14,875 bases of DNA, taken from Candidatus Caldarchaeum sp. GTDB taxonomy: Archaea > Thermoproteota > Nitrososphaeria_A > Caldarchaeales > Caldarchaeaceae. The stretch's first letter is position 1; every line of letters begins with the position of its first letter. The DNA lies in contig JAWBKB010000026.1 in assembly GCA_038831915.1 (NCBI GenBank), forward strand, positions 1-14,875. The letters are read 5' to 3'. The notes below the pieces were generated by a model, which was not told the DNA's origin, did not search any database, and worked only from the letters and a program-made list of their open reading frames with translations. Positions 622-10,539 of the stretch are shown here, piece after piece. A program made the position numbers and the translations under genes.

Positions 622-1320
622 TTAGTCCTTTGTGGTTGTTTTGTTTGAGGTGTTGGTTTTTCCGTTGATAGATTGTTTTGTGAATAATGGGTTGTCGATG
701 CTGATGTGTCCGATTTGGATAGCGGGTTCTGGGTTGCCTGTTCTTTCGACGACGGAAACTATGAAGTTTATGGCTTCGTCGAGCTTCATGTCGGGGTTGT
801 ATTCGGACTCGATGATGTCGAGTGCTTTGTCGCTGTTCGCTCCGACGGCGAAAGCGTCTCCGTAGAAAGCTGTGCCGCTTGGGTCGACTTGGTAAAGCTG
901 GACACCAAGTTTGTCGACGCCCGCGATGATGACCGCCACACCCTGAGGTCTGACGGGGTAAAGCGTGTAGCCGTGGAAATAGCCGCTAACCGAGTCTACC
1001 AGCGAACCGATGTCCATCGCCGCGTCATACAGCAGCCTGTGGCGCTGGGTTTCGAGTCGCATGTGGTCGACTAAGCGGTAGAGGTCGCTGATGTAGCCAG
1101 AGCCCGTTATGCCGACGTGGTCATCGATGATGAATACTTTGTCGCTGGGTTTCATGAGTTTACGTGTTGGCTTCACCATGCTTGCTACCACTGCGTATCT
1201 TGGGAATCGGAGGCCGATGCTGATGGAGCCGCGCATAACGGCTTCCAATGCTCTGTCGACGAGCGTCATTCGTCCTTCAGGGCCGTAAAACATCTGAAAA
1301 CGTGAAGGGTCGAAAGCCAT
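622..1320 (-). CDS. psmA: 20S proteasome alpha-type subunit, divergent paralog
   Basis: GPEGR..V..A.EAV.RGS.SIG, KVFIIDDHVGITGSG..SD, RPQGVAVIIAGVD, LYQVDPSG and AVG motifs of the alpha family. Confidence 0.9.
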   Translation of the reverse strand: MAFDPSRFQMFYGPEGRMTLVDRALEAVMRGSISIGLRFPRYAVVASMVKPTRKLMKPSDKVFIIDDHVGITGSGYISDLYRLVDHMRLETQRHRLLYDAAMDIGSLVDSVSGYFHGYTLYPVRPQGVAVIIAGVDKLGVQLYQVDPSGTAFYGDAFAVGANSDKALDIIESEYNPDMKLDEAINFIVSVVERTGNPEPAIQIGHISIDNPLFTKQSINGKTNTSNKTTTKD

Positions 1321-1887
1321 TTACTCAACCCTCCTGACCGGAATTGTCAACACGTCGACGCCGTTGCCCGAGCCAGGGTCCCGCTGCATTGCCGCTTCAA
1401 CCGCTTTAACAGCGATGTTTTTCGCCTGCTCGAGAGTGATGTTGGGTGAATAGAGGCTTTCGAGGACACCGTAGGCTACGGGTGAGCCGCTTCCCGACGA
1501 AACAAATTCTTCAGCCATGATGGAGCCGCTCATGTCGCTGCTGTAAACGTGTGGGCCTTCGTCGTCGACACCTGCCACGATAAGCTCCGCAAAGTATGGA
1601 AGATAATTGCGCATACCGCTGTAGAAAAGGTTGGAGATGAGTTTGCTTGATTCCGCCACGGACATCGGATATCCTCTCCGCAGGGCTATGAGTTTGCGTT
1701 CGGCTCTTACGACGTTGACGAGGTAAACCGCGTCGGAAACAAGGCCCGCGATGGCCACGGCGAGGCTGTCGTCGACCTTCAAAATTTTCTGCGTGGTCTT
1801 GGACGCTATGAAGAAGCCTTTGCTCGCACGTCTATCCGATGCCAGAACCACTCCATCAACCGCTTTCAAACCAACAATTGTTGTCAC
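1321..1887 (-). CDS. psmB: 20S proteasome beta-type subunit (Thr protease), no propeptide
   Basis: TTIVGL...D17...K33, AGLVSDA, SGSGS and RDPGSG catalytic motifs. GTG start directly before Thr1, preceded by GAGG. Confidence 0.93.
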   Translation of the reverse strand: MTTIVGLKAVDGVVLASDRRASKGFFIASKTTQKILKVDDSLAVAIAGLVSDAVYLVNVVRAERKLIALRRGYPMSVAESSKLISNLFYSGMRNYLPYFAELIVAGVDDEGPHVYSSDMSGSIMAEEFVSSGSGSPVAYGVLESLYSPNITLEQAKNIAVKAVEAAMQRDPGSGNGVDVLTIPVRRVE

Positions 1888-1953
1888 GTTTCCTCGACAA
1901 ATACATGGAAAAGGAGGTGTTTAGCGACTGACTTGATGTGCAGTTGGTCACAG

Positions 1954-2550
1954 CTATGCGGCGATTTTGAACGGGCTTGCAACTAATGCTTTAACGGGTG
2001 ATTGGTCGTCGATCAGCGCGAGTTCGTATGCTTTGCGTAGGATGGCTAAAGCGGCTCGAACGGCTTTGCGGTCGTTGACGTTGCTTTCGATGACGAGTCG
2101 GCTGTTTTTGAGCTTGAGGGTTATGGTCATCGAACCGTCGTATGAAATCCAACGCAACACATGGCCGTCTTCTTCGACACTGTATCCATGCCAGCGGAGC
2201 TCGTCAAACCATCTTCCTCGGAGGGCCACTACGCCGGCCAAGACAAGGCCCATGTCTTCGACCTGCGAATCAACTATCACATGTGATTGGCTGGGCTTGG
2301 TTTGTTCTACAAATCGACGGGCTTTTCCGCTCAGCCTGTAGCCTGTCTCGGTGCGGTCGACGAGGCCGTGTTTTTCCAGCCTTTTTAGGATGCGGGAAAG
2401 CTTTTCCTGATGCATGCCGAGGGCCCTACGCATTCCGCCGAAGCTTATTTCACCTTCAGAAGCCGTGGAAAGGGCTTTCAGCACTTCGGCCTCGTCTTCA
2501 CGGATATCTATGGAAAACTCGTCTCGCAACTTTTTCTCAACCGGGTTCAT
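1954..2550 (-). CDS. Winged helix-turn-helix (MarR-like) protein with an uncharacterised C-terminal domain
   Basis: EVLKAL...ISFGGMRRALGMHQEKLSRILKRLEKHGLV...GYRLS is a wHTH; GAGG precedes the ATG. Confidence 0.75.
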   Translation of the reverse strand: MNPVEKKLRDEFSIDIREDEAEVLKALSTASEGEISFGGMRRALGMHQEKLSRILKRLEKHGLVDRTETGYRLSGKARRFVEQTKPSQSHVIVDSQVEDMGLVLAGVVALRGRWFDELRWHGYSVEEDGHVLRWISYDGSMTITLKLKNSRLVIESNVNDRKAVRAALAILRKAYELALIDDQSPVKALVASPFKIAA

Positions 2551-2660
2551 CGCCTCGACATTATTAAGATGTGGTTGCTACAACGGTGTTTACGTCGTTG
2601 GCGGTTTTGCTTGTTGTTGGTCGGGAATGCTTAAATTTTAGGTTCAGCCTAAAACTGTCG

Positions 2661-3224
2661 ATGGTCACGACACAACAAAAACACCAAACCCTCTTGAAAG
2701 CGACAGAGGTTGCAGGCATATTCTTCATCGTGTTAATGGGGTCTCTGCTGCATTTCACCTACGAATTATCTGGAGAAAACGTTGTCGTCGGGTTGATTTC
2801 AGCCGTCAACGAAAGCGTTTGGGAACATCTCAAGCTGCCTTTCTTCCCAGCTCTTTTCCTCGGCGCCGCACAGCACGCGGTGATGCGGAAAACATATCCG
2901 AATTTCTGGCTCGGCAAAGCCGTCGGCACTTTCTCGATGCCGCTTATCATCGTCGTCGGGTTCTACGCATACAAGGCGGTTTTCGGAGGACACAACCTCG
3001 CATATGACATCGGGTTGTTCATAGTATCTGTCATGATCGGCCAACTCGTTAGCTATCGACTCATATCCCAGACAGGAGCCAAGCCCTTCAACATCCTTCC
3101 GCTGGCAGCGCTCATCGTCATGGCGGTCATCTTCATGGTCTTCACCATCGCACCACCCCGGCTTGAAATCTTCCAAGACCCGTTAACAGGTGGATTCGGC
3201 TTAGAAGGCCACAGCCACCTATAA
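2661..3224 (+). CDS. Integral membrane protein (DUF6512-like), about 5 TM helices
   Basis: GSLLHFTYELSG and AVNESVWEHLKL conserved-looking motifs plus hydrophobic helices. ATG 2661 preferred over 2571 because TTAAATTT lies at 2631-2638. Confidence 0.7.
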   Translation: MVTTQQKHQTLLKATEVAGIFFIVLMGSLLHFTYELSGENVVVGLISAVNESVWEHLKLPFFPALFLGAAQHAVMRKTYPNFWLGKAVGTFSMPLIIVVGFYAYKAVFGGHNLAYDIGLFIVSVMIGQLVSYRLISQTGAKPFNILPLAALIVMAVIFMVFTIAPPRLEIFQDPLTGGFGLEGHSHL

Positions 3225-3280
3225 CAAACAACCCATTCCTTTTTTACGCAGCCGTTTTTAACCACCAGCCTCATGTATTG

Positions 3281-4030
3281 ATGACGGTCGGCCGACGTAA
3301 ACTGCTCAAAAACAGCGCATTCATCTCCCTACTCGTCGGGGCCTTCGTGACGGGCCTTGTTTTTCTACCCGGGTTTATAGTTAGGCGAGAACAACAACCA
3401 ACTGTGCGAACCGATTTGAAAACAGTGGTGTTGCCTAAACCCCGTTTGTCGGGGCCGATGTCGGTTGAAGAAGCGATTCAGCGAAGGAGGTCGCGTCGAG
3501 AATATCGTAACGAGCCTTTGAAGTTGGCGGAGGTTTCGCAGTTATTATGGGCTGCTCAAGGAGTAACCGCTCCTCATCTATGGACGGGCCTTCGTTCCGC
3601 TCCTTCCGCGGGAGGCCTCTACCTGCTTGAAACATACGTTGTCGTCAAACGAGGCGGAGTCGAGGGCCTCGGACCCGGCACATACCACTACAACCCTCAT
3701 CGCCACATCCTCACCCAAGTCGCTGAAGGAGATTTTAGCAAAGACTTGATGAACGCATGCGTTGATCAGGAATGGGTTGGAGCCGCGGCATGCAACATCG
3801 TTTTCACAGCGGTCGTCGAAAGAACACGTGTGAGATACGGTGACAGGGCTTTGCAGTATGTTTTTCAAGAATCGGGGCACGCGGCTCAAAACGTGTATCT
3901 TCAGGCTAAAGCTCTTGGTTTTGGATGCGTGGTGATTGGAGCGTTTTACGAAGACGAGGTGAGGCGAATCTTGAACGCTGAGTCGGATGAGCTTCCTGTT
4001 TACGTGATGCCCATTGGCAGGCCCGCTTAA
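3281..4030 (+). CDS. SagB/ThcOx-type FMN-dependent nitroreductase-family protein with N-terminal twin-arginine signal/anchor
   Basis: LPKP..SVEEAIQRRRSRREY, LSQLLWAAQG-like, RSAPSAGGLY, ESGHAAQNVYLQA..LG.G..IGAF motifs. N-terminus is GRRKLLK followed by a hydrophobic helix. Confidence 0.88.
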   Translation: MTVGRRKLLKNSAFISLLVGAFVTGLVFLPGFIVRREQQPTVRTDLKTVVLPKPRLSGPMSVEEAIQRRRSRREYRNEPLKLAEVSQLLWAAQGVTAPHLWTGLRSAPSAGGLYLLETYVVVKRGGVEGLGPGTYHYNPHRHILTQVAEGDFSKDLMNACVDQEWVGAAACNIVFTAVVERTRVRYGDRALQYVFQESGHAAQNVYLQAKALGFGCVVIGAFYEDEVRRILNAESDELPVYVMPIGRPA

Positions 4031-4586
4031 CACCCTACTTCTCTACCGAGGCGTTTTAGTTGTTCTGCTCGGAATAGTTGTTTACTTTCTCGTCTCTGGG
4101 TTCGGGCCCCTGTTGACGAGTCCGCGAATCAGCTTAGATGTTTTGGACTGGAAAGGCGGTGGATGGGCTGGCTACAGGCTTGGCTACGCCGGAACGGTCA
4201 TGCTCGTCATCGCGCAAGCCTATCTATTCAGGCCCCGCATACTCAACAAGCTCATACTACTCAACATGCACTGCTACCTCACCACAGCAGGCGGAACACT
4301 CATTCTACTACATTCAGGGTTTCCCTACTCGTTCACATACTGGAATTTCCATGAAAGAATCTATCCATCGCTCGGGGTGTACGGCTTGGTCGGAATGCAG
4401 GGTCTGGCGGCTTGGATGGTGCTTCTTCTCATCGCCAGCGGCTTCTACGGCAGGTATCTATACGGCAAAACCCGCGCTTTCAAGAAATGGCATCTGTTTC
4501 ATTCGGTTTTTTCCGCTGTTCTCTACGTAGCAGGCGTCATCCACCTCATGCTCGTCGTAACTCTGAAACACGTTTCGGCGGTTTAG
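4014..4586 (+). CDS. Multi-pass membrane protein, putative di-heme cytochrome b / ferric-reductase-like
   Basis: About 5 TM helices; two H-x13-H pairs (MHCYLTTAGGTLILLHSG and FHSVFSAVLYVAGVIH); SGFYGRYLY motif. TTG start overlaps the upstream gene by 17 nt. Confidence 0.7.
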   Translation: MAGPLNTLLLYRGVLVVLLGIVVYFLVSGFGPLLTSPRISLDVLDWKGGGWAGYRLGYAGTVMLVIAQAYLFRPRILNKLILLNMHCYLTTAGGTLILLHSGFPYSFTYWNFHERIYPSLGVYGLVGMQGLAAWMVLLLIASGFYGRYLYGKTRAFKKWHLFHSVFSAVLYVAGVIHLMLVVTLKHVSAV

Positions 4587-5758: not shown

Positions 5759-7336
5759 TTAGATGTAGTTGTACGCTATCGGTGGTGTGAATTCGATGAA
5801 TTCGCGGTTTAAGGCGGTTTGTCGGAGGATTTCAGCGGCCTGTTCATATTTTGTTTCATGGTAGAACGCTCCAGCTTCCTGCCTGAATTTCTGAAGGATT
5901 TTCTGCAGTTCTTCTTCGAAGAGCTGTGGTGTTACTGTTCGTCCGTCGCTGAGCTTGACGCAGTGTCTCACCCACTGCCAGACAAGGGCCCGGGCTATTT
6001 CGAATGTCGCGGCGTCCTCCATGAGGTTGTTGATGGCTACGCATCCGTTTCCACGCAGCCACGACTCGAGATAACGGAGGCCCACCTCCATGTTAGCTCT
6101 CATACCTTCGACAGTTCTCTCGCCTTCAGGAACCTTGAGTAAATCATCCGCGGTTACAACGAGGTTTTCATGCTTGACGTGTAGCTGATTGGGTCCTTTG
6201 ATGTTTTCCACGAAAAGCTGTTTGACAACGGGGACGAGGTCGGGGTGAGCTACCCAAGCCCCGTCGAATCCTTGTGAAATTTCCCGAAGCTTGTCCTCGC
6301 GGACTTTGGCGAATGCTTTCTGCTGTGCTTCAGGGTTTCCACGCAACGGCACTTGTGCAGCCATTCCTCCGATGGCATACGCTCCACGGCGGTGACACGT
6401 CTTGACCAGCAGCAGAGCAGCCGATTTGAGGAAATGTTTATCCATGGTGAGGAGGCTTCTGTCCGGCATGATGTAGCGCGGGTCATGACCCAGCCGTTTG
6501 ATGAAGCTGAAGATATAATCCCATCGCCCAAGGTTTAGGGCTGTGATGTAGTCGCGGAGCTCGTAGATTATTTCGTCCATCTGGAATGCGGCTGTGATTG
6601 TTTCGATGAGTACGCTGCATTTGATTGTGCCATGTGGCAGGTTGAGGGTTTTCTCGGCGTCGGCGAAAACGGTGGCCCACCATCGTGCTTCACGGTAGTG
6701 TTCGAGCTTTGGAATGTAGAAGTAGGGCCCTGTTCCACGTTCCCGCAGCTCAGCCGCGTTGTGAAACAGGTAAAGACCGAAGTCAAACAACGCCGCCGGA
6801 ACCGGTGTTCCGTTGATTCGCATGTTTTTCTCCACGAGATGAAGACCTCGAGGCCTAACAACCAAAGTCGCTGTTTTTTCGTTTAAACGGTATACCTTTC
6901 CGTCAGGTCCCTTGAACTCGATGGTTTTCCGAACAGCGTCCATTAAGTTAATCTGGCCCGCGATGGTTGAATCCCAGACCGGTGAAAAACTATCCTCGAA
7001 ATCAGCCATGTAAACGTTAGCCCCCGAATTCAAAGCGTTAATCATCATTTTCCGGTCAACGGGTCCAGTGATTTCGACGTGTCGCACTTTGAGGTCTGGG
7101 GGAATTTCGGCGACCGTCCAGCCGCCCGCTCTTACGTCAGCTGTTTCTGGTGGAAAGTCGAGTTTGCCGCCTTGATGAAGGATCGCGGCTGTCGCTTCAC
7201 GTTCTTTCAACAGCGTCGAAAGCTGTGGGCCGTGTTTTTTGACGAGGGAGACGATGAAGTCAACTGCTTCCCCTGAAAGAACAGCGTCGATGTTTTGTTT
7301 CGTTTTGGTGTTTACCGACACCGCGGTCATCGTCAT
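5759..7336 (-). CDS. aceB: Malate synthase A
   Basis: VEITGP, MADFEDS, VRPRGLH, YIPKLE, LIET, LNLGRWDYIFS, GFDGAWVAHP and LMEDAAT motifs; 525 aa, MSA-sized. Confidence 0.96.
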   Translation of the reverse strand: MTMTAVSVNTKTKQNIDAVLSGEAVDFIVSLVKKHGPQLSTLLKEREATAAILHQGGKLDFPPETADVRAGGWTVAEIPPDLKVRHVEITGPVDRKMMINALNSGANVYMADFEDSFSPVWDSTIAGQINLMDAVRKTIEFKGPDGKVYRLNEKTATLVVRPRGLHLVEKNMRINGTPVPAALFDFGLYLFHNAAELRERGTGPYFYIPKLEHYREARWWATVFADAEKTLNLPHGTIKCSVLIETITAAFQMDEIIYELRDYITALNLGRWDYIFSFIKRLGHDPRYIMPDRSLLTMDKHFLKSAALLLVKTCHRRGAYAIGGMAAQVPLRGNPEAQQKAFAKVREDKLREISQGFDGAWVAHPDLVPVVKQLFVENIKGPNQLHVKHENLVVTADDLLKVPEGERTVEGMRANMEVGLRYLESWLRGNGCVAINNLMEDAATFEIARALVWQWVRHCVKLSDGRTVTPQLFEEELQKILQKFRQEAGAFYHETKYEQAAEILRQTALNREFIEFTPPIAYNYI

Positions 7337-8616
7337 TTGAACTGCATGTTTTCCGTTGATTCGGCGAGGGCCGTAACTGTTTCACCGCCTTCAACCGTTA
7401 GCAAAACCTCGTCATAGTAGTGAACTCCGACGAACCTCTGATGTTTGAACGCTCGGTAGCCGATTTTCTCCAGCTCCGATTCATGTGCCTGAAATTCGGC
7501 GTAAGCTTTCATGCCTTGTTCAGCCAGCTTCTTCGCGAGCTCATACATCGACGCGTTCAAGGTGTGGAACCCAGCCAACGTGATGAACTGGAATTTGTAA
7601 CCCATCTGCCCGAGTTTTTTGTTGAATTCGTGGAGCTCATCAGCATCGACGACTTTCACCCAGTTGAAGGAAGGCGACATGTTGTAGGCGAGAAGTTTGC
7701 CCGGATATTTGCGGTGAATCGCGTCAGCAAACTGTTTAGCTTCTTCGAGAGAAGGCCTCGATGTTTCGAACCAAAGCAAATCCGCGTAAGGAGCATACGC
7801 GAGGCCGCGTTCAATAGCCATTTCCAACCCGCTTTTCACTTCGAAATATCCTTCAGCCGTTCGCTTACCCGTCATGAATTGTTTGTCGACGGGATCCGCG
7901 TCGCTCGTAACATACTGTGCACCTATCGAGTCTGTTCTCGCTATCAAAACCGCTGGAACTCCGACGATGTCCGAGGCAAGCCTCGCAGCCGTCAAAATGC
8001 TTATGAACCGTTTAGTCGGCACCAATACTTTTCCACCGAGGTGGCCGCATCTTCTTTCACTCGGCGACTGGTCCTCGAAATGAACGCCGGCAGCACCTGC
8101 TTCGATCATTGCTTTCATCAACTCGAAGGCATGAAGCGGGCCGCCGAAGCCTGCTTCGCCGTCGGCGACTATCGGGACCATGTAGTCGATTTTGTTGGGC
8201 CTGTTTTCGAGATGCTGTATCTGGTCAGCTCGTTGAAGTGCTTTGTTGATTTTTGCGACGAGGTCGGATGTGCTGTTGGACGGGTAGAGGCCGAGGTCGG
8301 GGTACATGTGACCACTGTGGTTGTTGTCGGCAGCGACCTGCCAACCGCTGACGTAGATGGCTTTCGCACCCGCCTCCACCAGTTGGATGGCTTGGTTGCC
8401 TGTCAAAGCCCCTGAGGTGAAAACGTAGTCCGAATTGTTCAGCAGTTTCCAGAGCTTTTCAGATGTAAGCCGAGAAACGGTGTAGTCGATTTTCCACGTT
8501 CCACGCAGCTTCAGCACGTCTTCCGCCGAATATCGTCTGACAACCCCGTTCCAGCGAGGGGTTCTCCAAATTTTTTCCAGCTCTTCAGGTGTTTCCGCTT
8601 CGAGTAATGGGTTCAT
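7333..8616 (-). CDS. aceA: Isocitrate lyase (short prokaryotic type)
   Basis: IYVSGWQVAAD, YPD..LYP, PIVADGEAGFGG, HFEDQ, CGHLGGKVLVP, ARTD, YN.SPSFNW and QFITLAGFH motifs. ATGA overlap with aceB. Confidence 0.96.
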   Translation of the reverse strand: MNPLLEAETPEELEKIWRTPRWNGVVRRYSAEDVLKLRGTWKIDYTVSRLTSEKLWKLLNNSDYVFTSGALTGNQAIQLVEAGAKAIYVSGWQVAADNNHSGHMYPDLGLYPSNSTSDLVAKINKALQRADQIQHLENRPNKIDYMVPIVADGEAGFGGPLHAFELMKAMIEAGAAGVHFEDQSPSERRCGHLGGKVLVPTKRFISILTAARLASDIVGVPAVLIARTDSIGAQYVTSDADPVDKQFMTGKRTAEGYFEVKSGLEMAIERGLAYAPYADLLWFETSRPSLEEAKQFADAIHRKYPGKLLAYNMSPSFNWVKVVDADELHEFNKKLGQMGYKFQFITLAGFHTLNASMYELAKKLAEQGMKAYAEFQAHESELEKIGYRAFKHQRFVGVHYYDEVLLTVEGGETVTALAESTENMQFK

Positions 8617-8725: not shown

Positions 8726-9718
8726 ATGTTTCATCGGACAATACAGAGGACAGCCGGCGGCACATACGTCGTCACCCTGCCCAAAGAATACGTCAAATCA
8801 CTGGGTCTCGACCGTAAACATGTCGTCAAGATAACATTGGAAGACGACCGGATCATCCTTCATCCAACAGGCACAAAGCCCGTCATTCAGAGCAAAACCA
8901 TCCGAACAGCTGATTTCCGCGACCCGAAGCTTCTCGGACTCGCCATCGTCAACTTCTACATCATGGGTCACGACATCGCCGAAGTTGTTTCAGAAGGAAA
9001 AATGACGCCGGCACAGAAAAAAAGCGTACGCGAAGCCGTGGAAAACCTCATCGGAGTCGAAATCGTCGAAGACTACGCCGACCGTGTCGTGTTGCAGTCG
9101 CTCGTCGACCCTTCAAAGTTCGAAATCGATGTTTTGCTCGAAAGGTTTACGCAGTTTTCACGGGCGATTATGCGGGACGCCGCCAAAGCACTGAGCAACG
9201 ATGACAAACTTCTCGCCAGAGACGCCTACGAAAGAGGAGTCGAACTCACCCGTCAATACCGGCTGATGATGCGAATCTGTTTCCAAGCGCTTCGAAGCAG
9301 CACAATTCGCGAAACCATCAAAGTTGGAGATGTTTCGAGCCTCGTCGTCCGCATAATAGCGGTTCGAGAACTCGGCCGCGTCGCGTATTACTGCATGAAA
9401 ATGGCTGAAAGAGTTGAAGAAGCCGAAAAATCAGGTGGAGAAATCTCGATGATAATCGACGAAATGGTTCAGTTGGTTGACAACATGCTTGAGGATGCTT
9501 TGCAGGCGTTGTTGAAGCACGACCTCGGGTTGGCGAGCGAAGTCATCGACAAAATGGAAAACGTGCGAAACCTCTACGCCAAAGCCTACAAACAAATTAT
9601 CAAGAAGCCTGAAAAAGAAGCTTATACTCTGGGGTTGATTATACGTGCTGTCAGGGCCATCGCGGGATACAGCGTAGCTTTAGCCGATGATGCAATTCTT
9701 GAAATTTTCTCAAAGTAA
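8726..9718 (+). CDS. Archaeal AbrB/SpoVT-PhoU family regulator
   Basis: N-terminal RTIQRTAGGTYVVTLPKE (AbrB-like), YIMG, LIGVEIVE, then helical PhoU repeats (ELGRVAYY, AIAGYSVALAD). Confidence 0.88.
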   Translation: MFHRTIQRTAGGTYVVTLPKEYVKSLGLDRKHVVKITLEDDRIILHPTGTKPVIQSKTIRTADFRDPKLLGLAIVNFYIMGHDIAEVVSEGKMTPAQKKSVREAVENLIGVEIVEDYADRVVLQSLVDPSKFEIDVLLERFTQFSRAIMRDAAKALSNDDKLLARDAYERGVELTRQYRLMMRICFQALRSSTIRETIKVGDVSSLVVRIIAVRELGRVAYYCMKMAERVEEAEKSGGEISMIIDEMVQLVDNMLEDALQALLKHDLGLASEVIDKMENVRNLYAKAYKQIIKKPEKEAYTLGLIIRAVRAIAGYSVALADDAILEIFSK

Positions 9719-9738
9719 AACCAAATAAGCAACCGGAT

Positions 9739-10539
9739 GTGTTTAACGTCGTGCCAACAGATATCGACTCCCCAAGGGCAGTTATATGTGGGGACAGAGA
9801 AGTTTATTTTTTCTCTGTTCAGCTCAAAGACGAGCCTGGCTCTCTCGCACAGGTTTTGTCAGTTATTGCCACTTATGGGTTGAACATTGTGAGCATTTAT
9901 TCGAGCGAAACAAGTTCTGAGCAACGTCAATTCATCGAAGTCAACATGATGTTGGATTTCACGGGAAAACCGTTTTCGGTCGAGCAAGTCAAGAAAAGCA
10001 TCGAGCTTCTGAACACGGTCAAAAACGTCCTCTACAGTGGTAAACAGTTTCCAAACATGATCTTCGATGATTTTCATTATCCAGTTAAGCTGATGGGAGA
10101 CCGCATCATCATCTACAGGGAATATTCCTACGCAGCTTTGATTCATGGCATTCGCCGCCAACTTGGAACCGCGGGTGAAGCTCTTCTCTACCACATCGGC
10201 TACAACATCGGCAAAGGCTCGGGACAGAGACTCAAAACTCTTCTGACGGGACACTCTGAATTCATAGACAAAGCCCTGAAATATTGGATGCTGATTCACA
10301 GCGCGGCAAACATATCAGAGGTTCAAATAGACCCAGGAGCTAAGAAAGCGTTAATCAGAGTAGCTGACAACTATGAATGCAGAACCGGCCTCAAAACGGG
10401 TAAGCCATTCAGTAACCTGTTTCGCGGAAATCTTGCGGGGATTTTGGACGAGCTGTTCGGAATAGAGACGCTTGTCGAAACGAAATGCATCGCGGCCGGC
10501 GACCCCTACTGCGAATTCGTCACACCTGAAAACACGTAG
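9739..10539 (+). CDS. ACT-domain + V4R-domain small-molecule-binding protein
   Basis: LKDEPGSLAQVLSVIATYGLNI (ACT); LLYHIGYNIG, YEC, FRG.LAG and VETKCIAAGDPYCEF (V4R). Confidence 0.85.
   Translation: MFNVVPTDIDSPRAVICGDREVYFFSVQLKDEPGSLAQVLSVIATYGLNIVSIYSSETSSEQRQFIEVNMMLDFTGKPFSVEQVKKSIELLNTVKNVLYSGKQFPNMIFDDFHYPVKLMGDRIIIYREYSYAALIHGIRRQLGTAGEALLYHIGYNIGKGSGQRLKTLLTGHSEFIDKALKYWMLIHSAANISEVQIDPGAKKALIRVADNYECRTGLKTGKPFSNLFRGNLAGILDELFGIETLVETKCIAAGDPYCEFVTPENT

Follow-up and report, generated by a model that had tools for sequence, protein, structure and literature searches.

The window, i.e. the whole stretch of 14,875 nucleotides (nt) analysed here, is the forward strand of contig JAWBKB010000026.1 from the genome of a hot-spring archaeon, Candidatus Caldarchaeum sp. 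(assembly GCA_038831915.1), and it contains on its minus strand a row of three genes that form a putative accessory proteasome module. These genes encode a winged helix-turn-helix (wHTH) protein, which is referred to below as the regulator, a proteasome beta-type subunit (beta'), and a divergent alpha-type subunit (alpha'). A sequence-only reading of this DNA had described psmB and psmA as abutting and as following a wHTH gene on the same strand after a spacer of 66 nt, and this layout was confirmed by the coordinates of the open reading frames (ORFs; Table 1). The stop codon of beta' and the start codon of alpha' are directly adjacent (TAA|ATG, gap zero), which, together with the AGGAGG sequence located within the 3' end of beta', suggests that the two genes are translated in a coupled manner.

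Table 1. Positions of the genes and signals of the regulator-beta'-alpha' locus in the window
Feature	Position	Strand	Remarks
Two-domain regulator gene (wHTH)	1954-2550	minus	198 amino acids (aa); ATG start; stop TAG at 1956-1954
Spacer between regulator gene and beta'	1888-1953	minus	66 nt; contains candidate operator, TATA-like box and GAGG
Candidate operator GTGACC-N16-AGTC	1926-1951	minus	Half-sites TGAC / GTC(A/G); GCTAAAC directly after
GAGG in spacer	1895-1892	minus	Four nt ahead of the GTG start of beta'
beta' (proteasome beta subunit, predicted to lack a propeptide)	1321-1887	minus	188 aa; GTG start; stop TAA at 1323-1321
AGGAGG within the 3' end of beta'	1330-1335	minus	Nine nt before the ATG of alpha'
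alpha' (divergent alpha-type subunit)	622-1320	minus	232 aa; ATG at 1320-1318

The host genome (G000; 1.59 Mb, 95.6% complete), of which the window is contig C26, was searched as a whole with PF00227, and five genes were identified, i.e. the window pair and three genes located elsewhere. The latter comprise a canonical alpha gene (244 aa) with the full N-terminal signature (PF10584, 49.9 bits; NF003075, 290 bits), which is followed by the SBDS and Rrp4 genes, and two canonical beta genes. The products of these beta genes (223 and 205 aa) both carry N-terminal leader residues, i.e. a propeptide-type extension, and the genes adjoin an FttA/beta-CASP gene and an RtcA gene, respectively. Since a canonical alpha and two canonical betas are encoded elsewhere in the genome, the window pair is additional to this set, as had been proposed when the genes were read as a second, paralogous alpha/beta set besides housekeeping subunits. 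All four relatives lacking alpha' that were checked (G013, G018, G019, and G020) contain exactly three PF00227 genes, whereas five of the genomes carrying the pair contain five and one contains seven. The core particle of Sulfolobales consists of one alpha and two betas (PMC13736083), and the canonical set of the window genome is of this Sulfolobales type.

With respect to other components of the proteolytic machinery, no PAN gene over the cut-off was detected in the window genome (best model score, 330 bits; cut-off, 500 bits), and no Lon_C domain was found in this genome. Two Cdc48-type double-AAA ATPases of 727 and 726 aa are encoded at C13:3993-6176 (plus strand) and C5:57933-60113 (minus strand), respectively; their C-termini read ...SMAYIG and ...PLMMIG, so that the penultimate residue is not tyrosine in either protein.

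The score of beta' with PF00227 is 175.7 bits, well above the Pfam cut-off of 22.4, and its score with the archaeal beta model TIGR03634 (220.3 bits) is just under the cut-off of 224 and thus marginal, the two canonical betas of the same genome scoring 234.1 and 217.5 bits. In an end-to-end alignment (144 bits) with the mature beta subunit of Archaeoglobus fulgidus (1j2q_H), residue 2 of beta' falls on Thr1, and the catalytic set, i.e. Thr1, Asp17, Lys33, Gly47, the GSGS segment, and Asp166/Ser169, is in place; for Thr1, Asp/Glu17, Lys33, and Ser129/Asp166/Ser169, we assume the residue roles given in the Thermoplasma literature. With all of its catalytic residues intact, beta' is putatively active. 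The protein starts with M-TTIVG, and no in-frame start codon is present upstream of the GTG that directly precedes Thr-Thr; in the related loci, too, Thr-Thr-(Ile/Val)-Val comes immediately after the start codon. Because no earlier in-frame start is present and the Met-Thr-Thr start is conserved, beta' is, as predicted from its gene, a subunit without a propeptide, in which removal of Met1 rather than autocleavage would expose the nucleophile.

alpha' is a divergent subunit of the alpha type. Its PF00227 score (126.7 bits) is over the Pfam cut-off, and its scores with the NCBIfam alpha models are below their cut-offs (152.5 versus 287.35 for TIGR03633 and 162.9 versus 219 for NF003075). The N-terminal alpha signature PF10584 (YDR...SP.GR.YQVEYA) gave no match to alpha' at E<=0.01, whereas the canonical alpha of the same genome reaches the 49.9 bits mentioned above. 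In alpha', this signature is replaced by FDPSRFQMFYGPEGRMTLVDRALEAV, and SRYPYFYGPEGRLVLVDSALEAV is a conserved N-terminal motif specific to the alpha' family; an intermediate state is seen in the Methanosuratincola alpha', which matches PF10584 in part (28.7 bits). The protein aligns to the solved alpha subunits only from residue 10 on (113-114 bits), and it has an Asn/Thr/Lys-rich, non-conserved tail of its own. In an alignment of 15 alpha sequences including the canonical alpha, which contains 35 invariant columns, the canonical Y-D-R is changed to P-S-R in the window alpha' and to x-(S/G)-R across the alpha' family, and the equivalent of Tyr26 is Arg in the window protein and Arg or Ser in the family. 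The equivalents of Pro17, Arg10, and Lys66 (Thermoplasma acidophilum numbering for the last) are invariant in alpha', and the lysine, K61 of alpha', is invariant in all 15 sequences. We take Lys66 to be the lysine of the activator (HbYX) pocket and Tyr8-Asp9/Tyr26 to be the gate cluster; on this assignment, the alignment predicts that the gate-stabilizing cluster of alpha' is remodelled and the activator-pocket lysine retained.

A careful maximum-likelihood (ML) tree constructed from all 47 PF00227 proteins of 11 genomes contains five clades, namely alpha' (support 98/96), canonical alpha (95/91), beta' (100/100), canonical beta with a GTTT N-terminus (82/80), and canonical beta with a GAT(T/A/V) N-terminus (98/96). 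The pair is therefore separate from the canonical orthologs in this tree, in line with the paralogy supposed earlier. The alpha' and beta' clades have long stems and evolve as a pair; the node that places beta' relative to the two canonical betas has a support of only 69/24. The internal order is identical in all five clades, i.e. (Methanomethylicia, (ammonia oxidisers, Caldarchaeales)). Since the branching of alpha' and beta' mirrors that of the canonical subunits, vertical descent with loss is favoured over recent transfer, and the tree indicates an old duplication, predicted to date back at least to the ancestor that the three groups share and followed by many losses. An alpha' profile search against 1.84 billion representative proteins led to a FastTree of 111 rows, which included 90 such representatives. 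In this tree, the alpha' clade comprises 12 rows (support 99) within a poorly resolved comb of archaeal alphas, and only P0146, P0148, and P0194 join it in addition to sequences attributable to the three groups (Caldarchaeum/HR01, ammonia oxidisers, and the methane-cycle archaea Methanomethylicia). As an observation on the canonical subunits, the beta clade that contains the C7 gene (L003:1465-2082) has G-A-T-(T/A/V), i.e. Ala at the usual cleavage position, in all 11 sequences, compared with G-T-T-T in the other clade; this clade may presumably correspond to the inactive beta of Sulfolobales.

Within the genus, alpha' orthologs with 81-88% identity were found in 10 of the 12 other genomes (one being a contig-end fragment), and the two genomes without an alpha' match are 76% and 82% complete. 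The alpha' of archaeon HR01, which represents a neighbouring genus, is 62% identical. In the class of the window genome, alpha' is present in 11 of 64 genomes of at least 80% completeness and in 2 of 15 genera. An even sample of 401 genomes of the phylum contained 30 with an alpha' match (E<=1e-40), including 9 of 12 genomes in f1, 5 of 64 in f5 (4 of 63 without an unpublished genome, G411, which otherwise supplies only one locus, L156, described below), 13 of 23 in f11, and two genomes in f55. By exact protein identity to named records, f11 corresponds to Methanosuratincola/Methanomethylicaceae, G363 to Nitrosocosmicus franklandus, and G208 to Nitrosotalea devanaterra. Pairwise dN/dS ratios (non-synonymous to synonymous substitution rates) within the genus are ~0.035-0.078 for all three genes, although these values are rough because dS is saturated in the genus comparisons.

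Related loci were also collected in a scan of species representatives, in which the best 80 of 182 relatives among 479 candidate stretches came from Caldarchaeum, HR01, many Nitrososphaera, Nitrosopolaris, Nitrosotalea, and other ammonia-oxidiser metagenome-assembled genomes. In all 80 loci, alpha' immediately follows beta' in the same orientation, and among the 78 related loci with both ORFs called, 74 have a gap of -8 to +6 nt between the two genes. A wHTH homolog is present within the locus in 49 of 62 informative loci, a count that leaves out nine loci with too little flanking sequence and nine without a beta' start. These homologs are located upstream on the same strand in 46 loci, with a distance to beta' of 58-115 nt in 24 of them (58-66 nt in 22 loci), and downstream on the other strand in three loci of the Nitrosotalea type. 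The homologs of ammonia oxidisers share 30-38% identity with the window regulator, and the trio is colinear in all 11 Methanomethylicaceae loci. The linkage of the wHTH gene to the pair, which the sequence-only reading had treated as decisive for its proposal, is thus conserved over three classes. A profile of the C-terminal domain of the regulator detected one gene per genome in 52 of the 401 phylum genomes, including all 30 that are alpha'-positive.

The spacers upstream of beta' share a candidate operator. Alignments of Caldarchaeum/HR01, ammonia-oxidiser, and Methanomethylicia spacers contain GTGAC(C/T)-N16-(A/G)GTC with an AT-rich box directly after it, the box being GCTAAAC in the window and AATTAAT, AATAATA, or TATAAG in other spacers; among nine aligned Caldarchaeum/HR01 spacers, GTGAC, AGTC, TA, and GAG are invariant. 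The pattern GTGACY-N15-18-RGTC occurs <=120 nt from the Met-Thr-Thr start in 71 of the 74 loci with at least 110 nt upstream of beta', and the three misses are one base off; the background elsewhere in the same loci is 56 matches in 1.42 Mb. The distance from GTC to the start codon is 29-53 nt (29-40 nt in 65 of the 71 loci), and the beta' start of the window lies 34-37 nt beyond its GCTAAAC-adjacent operator. Among 62 distinct sites, 50-62 show complementarity at the TGAC/GTCA positions, and the inner positions are conserved (TT...A) and not symmetric. The operator stays in front of beta' in loci where the regulator gene is 151-4000 nt away (22 loci), where it lies downstream on the other strand (three loci), and where the locus has no regulator gene (13 loci).

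The strict pattern has a single occurrence in the window genome, and an extended pattern occurs once per genome, directly before beta', in four of five other genomes; it has no occurrence in the fifth, which is of the HR01 type and has a different box. With a looser motif, 27 matches were obtained in the window genome, nearly all of which are inside ORFs. When the window was shuffled, 74 of 200 shuffles contained at least one core-motif match, so that a single match in the window is not beyond chance, and the weight of the window operator comes from the conservation of its position across loci. No operator was found at the single HtrA-like gene of the genome. Upstream of the window regulator gene, GTGACC is present, but no second half-site exists there, and the arrangement is not conserved in the genus; a second operator copy before the transcription unit of the regulator was found in HR01 and in five f5-type loci (one from the unpublished G411), and in four such loci it precedes a small Cys-rich gene located between the site and the regulator gene. 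In the latter, i.e. L156 (from G411), L157, L158, and L160 (f5, Nitrosotalea-type), GTGACT-N16-TAGTC stands before a zinc-ribbon-like ORF of ~90-113 aa (RCKG.CYRFAAKKP...CS.CG...RCPCCNNKLR); this ORF precedes the regulator gene in the same orientation and may belong to the regulon as a third member.

By archaeal promoter geometry, i.e. the distance of the TATA box to the start, the AT-rich box would sit where the TATA box of a leaderless or short-leader mRNA fits. A conserved operator and a TATA-like element are thus present at promoter distance from beta', so that a single promoter-less operon appears improbable, and the three genes probably constitute a regulator and its own regulated two-gene operon. 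The proposal of one compact wHTH-beta-alpha operon is consequently disfavoured, whereas that of a regulator dedicated to the pair gained support from the candidate operator, both by its conservation and by its uniqueness in four other genomes. The accompanying remark that the spacer has no clear TATA box is correct in that no AT-rich octamer is present; however, the conserved GTGACC-N16-AGTC-GCTAAAC stands where orthologous spacers have AATTAAT or TATAAG. A scan for sigma-70 promoters and terminators is of the bacterial type and was uninformative for an archaeon.

The regulator itself matches the Pfam families MarR_2 (30.3 bits; cut-off, 27) and MarR (29.9 bits; cut-off, 24.6). A MarR-like winged helix makes up its N-terminal part (residues ~1-85), and its C-terminal part (~90-180) is a conserved alpha/beta domain, in which the motif G-x-W...R-W...L-x-W is invariant in an alignment of orthologs. 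In an AlphaFold2 model of the protein (mean predicted local distance difference test score, pLDDT, 82), the N-terminal domain superimposes on MarR-type chains with Z 10-12 and root-mean-square deviations of 1.3-2.4 over 68-79 residues, and the C-terminal domain forms a separate beta-alpha-beta4-alpha unit (pLDDT 84 when modelled alone). The protein therefore departs from the one-domain MarR architecture, in which helical dimerization arms surround the wHTH, by its separate C-terminal domain. This domain matches no Pfam family. An assignment of its fold was rejected, the best VIA-align hits (Z 8.9-6) being TBP-like, COR-B, phosphoglucomutase C-domain, KA1, and START-like structures, i.e. unrelated folds in a commonly reached range of scores. 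With the whole model as query, Foldseek yielded nothing but wHTH or two-domain regulators, all with low template modelling scores, and the ESM Atlas gave no usable match. Among the best 120 of 2234 matches in a profile search with the regulator, the few rows named by organism are Nitrososphaera or Thermoproteota.

Homologs of the regulator are also coupled to a protease gene of an unrelated type. In f14 (Bathyarchaeia-like), whose homolog shares 68% identity with a protein recorded under the name Candidatus Bathyarchaeia, the gene is followed by GTGAC(G/T)-N17-AGTCA and then by a Trypsin_2+PDZ (HtrA-type) gene in three of four loci (L176, L180, and L184), and in the fourth (L177), the homolog stands alone. 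The f14 genomes contain two to four PF00227 genes, none of them arranged as an adjacent pair. Two unrelated proteases are thus coupled to one factor family and one type of site, which favours a putative role of the protein as a regulator of protease genes over one as a structural partner of the proteasome.

A weak hint of expression of the module comes from one metatranscriptome (X15). Pieces of 95-99% likeness match beta' at 1682-1855 and the regulator gene at 1999-2232 and 2247-2494, a diverged contig of 889 nt includes the 5' portion of beta' and continues into the regulator gene, and alpha' is covered for 41 nt only. This data set consists of contigs only, with 0.05 of words; contigs cannot show transcript ends, and carry-over of DNA is possible.

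Taking the above results together, we consider it rather probable that the window carries an old, self-contained accessory proteasome module, i.e. a beta'-alpha' operon with its own promoter and a dedicated wHTH regulator encoded upstream, whose products would form a particle separate from the housekeeping one. According to this model, the regulator would bind the inverted repeat, probably as a dimer, with half-sites located about two helical turns apart and extending from the position of the B recognition element to about -58. Binding would switch the transcription of beta'-alpha' on or off, the sign not being readable from the position of the site, and the signal, most plausibly proteotoxic stress, would be read by the C-terminal domain. 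The resulting mRNA would be leaderless or have a short leader, coupled translation would supply alpha' and beta' in equal amounts from one mRNA, and the two subunits would assemble into a second 20S-type particle. The gate of this particle would differ from that of the housekeeping particle, no autocatalytic maturation would be required, and activators would dock via the retained pocket lysine.

Several points weigh against this reading. A particle of its own for the pair, as opposed to mixing with canonical subunits, is a prediction from the genes, as are the signal of the regulation and the DNA binding and dimerization of the regulator. No regulator gene is present within 3 kb or more in 13 of the 62 informative loci, the strict operator core is found in 6 of 11 Methanomethylicaceae loci and missing in the other five, and in family f31, an orphan homolog of the regulator is present in all three loci with no protease gene and no motif. 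In addition, GCTAAAC is a weak TATA-like element, and read-through from the regulator gene may occur in the window; the term 'sensor' for the C-terminal domain is a guess, since its best fold match has a Z of 8.9; and the metatranscriptome contigs are a weak hint of transcription.

The alternative that deserves most attention, although we regard it as unlikely, is that alpha' and beta' are alternative subunits that enter the canonical rings and yield hybrid core particles with altered gating or specificity. Paralogs build mixed or alternative particles in Haloferax (alpha1/alpha2) and Pyrococcus (beta1/beta2), alpha' keeps the general alpha fold signature and shares many invariant positions with the canonical alpha (the 35 invariant columns), and beta' is near-canonical by its archaeal beta score. 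The joint presence of one alpha and two betas in the Sulfolobales particle (PMC13736083) also fits such mixing. The strict co-occurrence and predicted translational coupling of alpha' and beta' (80 of 80 loci), however, fit a 1:1 partnership, and the long stems of both subunits, their evolution as a pair, and their separate, predicted transcriptional control likewise favour a particle of their own. It is very unlikely, in our estimation, that the pair is a dispensable and patchily kept remnant, or a horizontally moved accessory, that is redundant with the housekeeping proteasome. Its spread is indeed patchy (see the class, f5, and phylum counts above), and many lineages have lost or never had it; nevertheless, the catalytic residues are intact, dN/dS is ~0.04-0.08, the regulator and the operator are conserved over three classes, and the branching order of alpha' and beta' mirrors that of the canonical subunits.

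An equally improbable alternative concerns the wHTH protein, which would be a structural partner, an assembly factor, or a substrate adaptor encoded in one constitutive operon with the pair, the spacer element then being an RNA or translation signal. The close spacing on the same strand (58-66 nt in 22 loci), the absence of a strong TATA box in the window spacer, the 889-nt contig that joins the 5' portion of beta' to a portion of the wHTH gene, and a C-terminal domain without a recognized ligand-binding family are consistent with this idea. It is difficult to reconcile with the persistence of the element before beta' when the regulator gene is distant, on the opposite strand, or absent from the locus, with an inverted repeat and an AT-rich box 29-40 nt from the start, i.e. 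archaeal promoter geometry, with the MarR-type DNA-binding fold of the N-terminal domain, or with the f14 loci, in which an unrelated protease gene lies behind a member of this protein family and a variant of the site.

Beyond the accessory module with its own regulator, a more specific and speculative proposal, which we regard as possible though doubtful, is that the locus is a proteotoxic-stress switch. Two-domain wHTH proteins of an undescribed family would use their C-terminal domain to detect protein that is unfolded or damaged, or would themselves be degraded by the protease under their control (Rpn4-like feedback), and would turn on a lineage-specific 'emergency' protease. In Caldarchaeum, the soil ammonia oxidisers, and Methanomethylicia, this protease would be a 20S particle with a different gate, a beta without a propeptide, and no need for a maturation step, and in the Bathyarchaeia-like genomes, it would be of the HtrA type. 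If true, this would be the first dedicated core-proteasome regulon in archaea, together with a ready-to-fire second proteasome.

Both subunits of the window share the PF00227 fold family with the canonical archaeal 20S proteasome (1j2q of A. fulgidus, 1pma of T. acidophilum, and 3h4p of M. jannaschii). They differ from it in the predicted lack of a propeptide in beta' and of the PF10584 signature in alpha', where Tyr8-Asp9 and Tyr26 are replaced and only the Arg10 equivalent is kept of the gate cluster; moreover, the canonical genes of the window genome are scattered, whereas those of the window form a beta-alpha operon with its own regulator. As in the window genome, more than one alpha or beta gene is present in archaea with subunit paralogs (Sulfolobales, Haloferax, and Pyrococcus), and condition-specific particles are possible, but these paralogs are single extra subunits that join the housekeeping particle, whereas the window encodes a complete alpha and beta pair that is co-encoded, co-inherited, and, by prediction, separately regulated. 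Actinobacteria also encode beta and then alpha in one operon (prcB-prcA). The likeness to the prcBA layout that had been pointed out is therefore real for the gene order and does not extend to the sequences, which are of the archaeal type: beta' scores 76.7 bits with the bacterial beta model TIGR03690 (cut-off, 191.9) versus 220.3 bits with the archaeal one, and alpha' gave no match with the bacterial alpha model TIGR03691 at E<=0.01. In addition, the actinobacterial beta has a long propeptide, whereas the window beta' would have none. In HslV, the catalytic Thr directly follows the initiator Met, so that only removal of Met is needed, and the enzyme works with HslU and has no alpha partner. 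beta' resembles HslV in the position of its Thr directly after Met, and it has weak matches to HslV models (24.4 and 22.3 bits); it is, however, a true archaeal beta, as both its scores and its position in the tree show, and is always accompanied by an adjoining alpha'.

The closest archaeal regulator of a proteasome-system gene described so far is CCTF1, an ArsR-type factor of Sulfolobales that is reported to repress pan through an AT-rich palindrome, to bind several further promoters, and to be linked to the cell cycle (PMC13736083). The two systems have in common a winged-helix factor and a palindrome, in the window a candidate operator, in the promoter of a proteasome-system gene of an archaeon of the TACK group (Thaumarchaeota, Aigarchaeota, Crenarchaeota, and Korarchaeota). 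The window factor differs from CCTF1 in its extra conserved C-terminal domain, in its candidate site (GTGACY-N16-RGTC), and in the occurrence of this site once per genome tested, before core-particle genes rather than before pan. Regulons dedicated to proteases are formed by Rpn4/PACE in yeast and by CtsR and HrcA in bacteria. These systems share with the window the logic of one factor devoted to protease genes, here a single family before beta'-alpha' or an HtrA-type protease, and their proteins and sites are unrelated to the regulator and the operator.

We found no description in the literature of a complete second pair combined with a propeptide-less beta, a signature-less alpha, and a dedicated regulator with a genome-unique operator across three classes. 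The available part of the main text of a survey of proteasome homologs makes no mention of these lineages (PMC8665760), and none of the 11 'proteasome' passages in the main text of the C. subterraneum genome paper mentions an extra pair (PMC3082918). The parts, i.e. archaeal alpha and beta subunits and a winged-helix factor, are known; what appears to be new is their combination, including the predicted GTGACY-N16-RGTC operator conserved over three classes. The core genes of the archaeal proteasome are usually viewed as housekeeping genes without dedicated transcriptional control, and the betas as guarded by a propeptide until assembly. The module thus raises the questions of how an archaeon switches its proteolytic capacity, whether safe assembly of a proteasome is possible without a propeptide, and what role a gate without the Tyr-Asp/Tyr cluster plays. 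Cultured carriers exist, the proteins of two genomes being identical to the N. devanaterra and N. franklandus records, and since ammonia oxidisers matter for the soil nitrogen cycle, a stress-specific proteasome in these organisms would, if true, be of ecological interest. Being compact and portable, the regulator with its operator is also a candidate for use as a genetic switch in archaea.

At 2636-2654, between the regulator gene and a divergent DUF6512 gene (2571-3224, plus strand), TTTTAGG-N5-CCTAAAA forms a perfect inverted repeat, with TTTAAG after it. Among seven aligned related loci, TTTTAGG...CCTAAAATATA is conserved in three, and a variant form is present in a fourth; the repeat probably serves as a bidirectional TATA region, or else as a separate operator. 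In the DUF6512 ORF, the Pfam match starts at residue 45, so that the annotated GTG start at 2571 probably lies too far upstream. This ORF is followed in a row (2571-4586, plus strand) by a SagB-type dehydrogenase gene (TIGR03605, 134.4 bits) and an unassigned ORF of 190 aa, and the row is possibly a small peptide-modification cluster adjoining the proteasome module, although its linkage to the trio is kept only in some members of the genus. In other parts of the window, tandem genes for malate synthase A (699 bits) and isocitrate lyase (654.7 bits) at 5759-8616 (minus strand) form a complete glyoxylate shunt pair. At 8726-10539 (plus strand), two proteins with unusual regulator architectures are encoded, i.e. 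an AbrB/MazE-like domain fused to PhoU domains (330 aa) and, following it, an ACT + V4R protein (266 aa).

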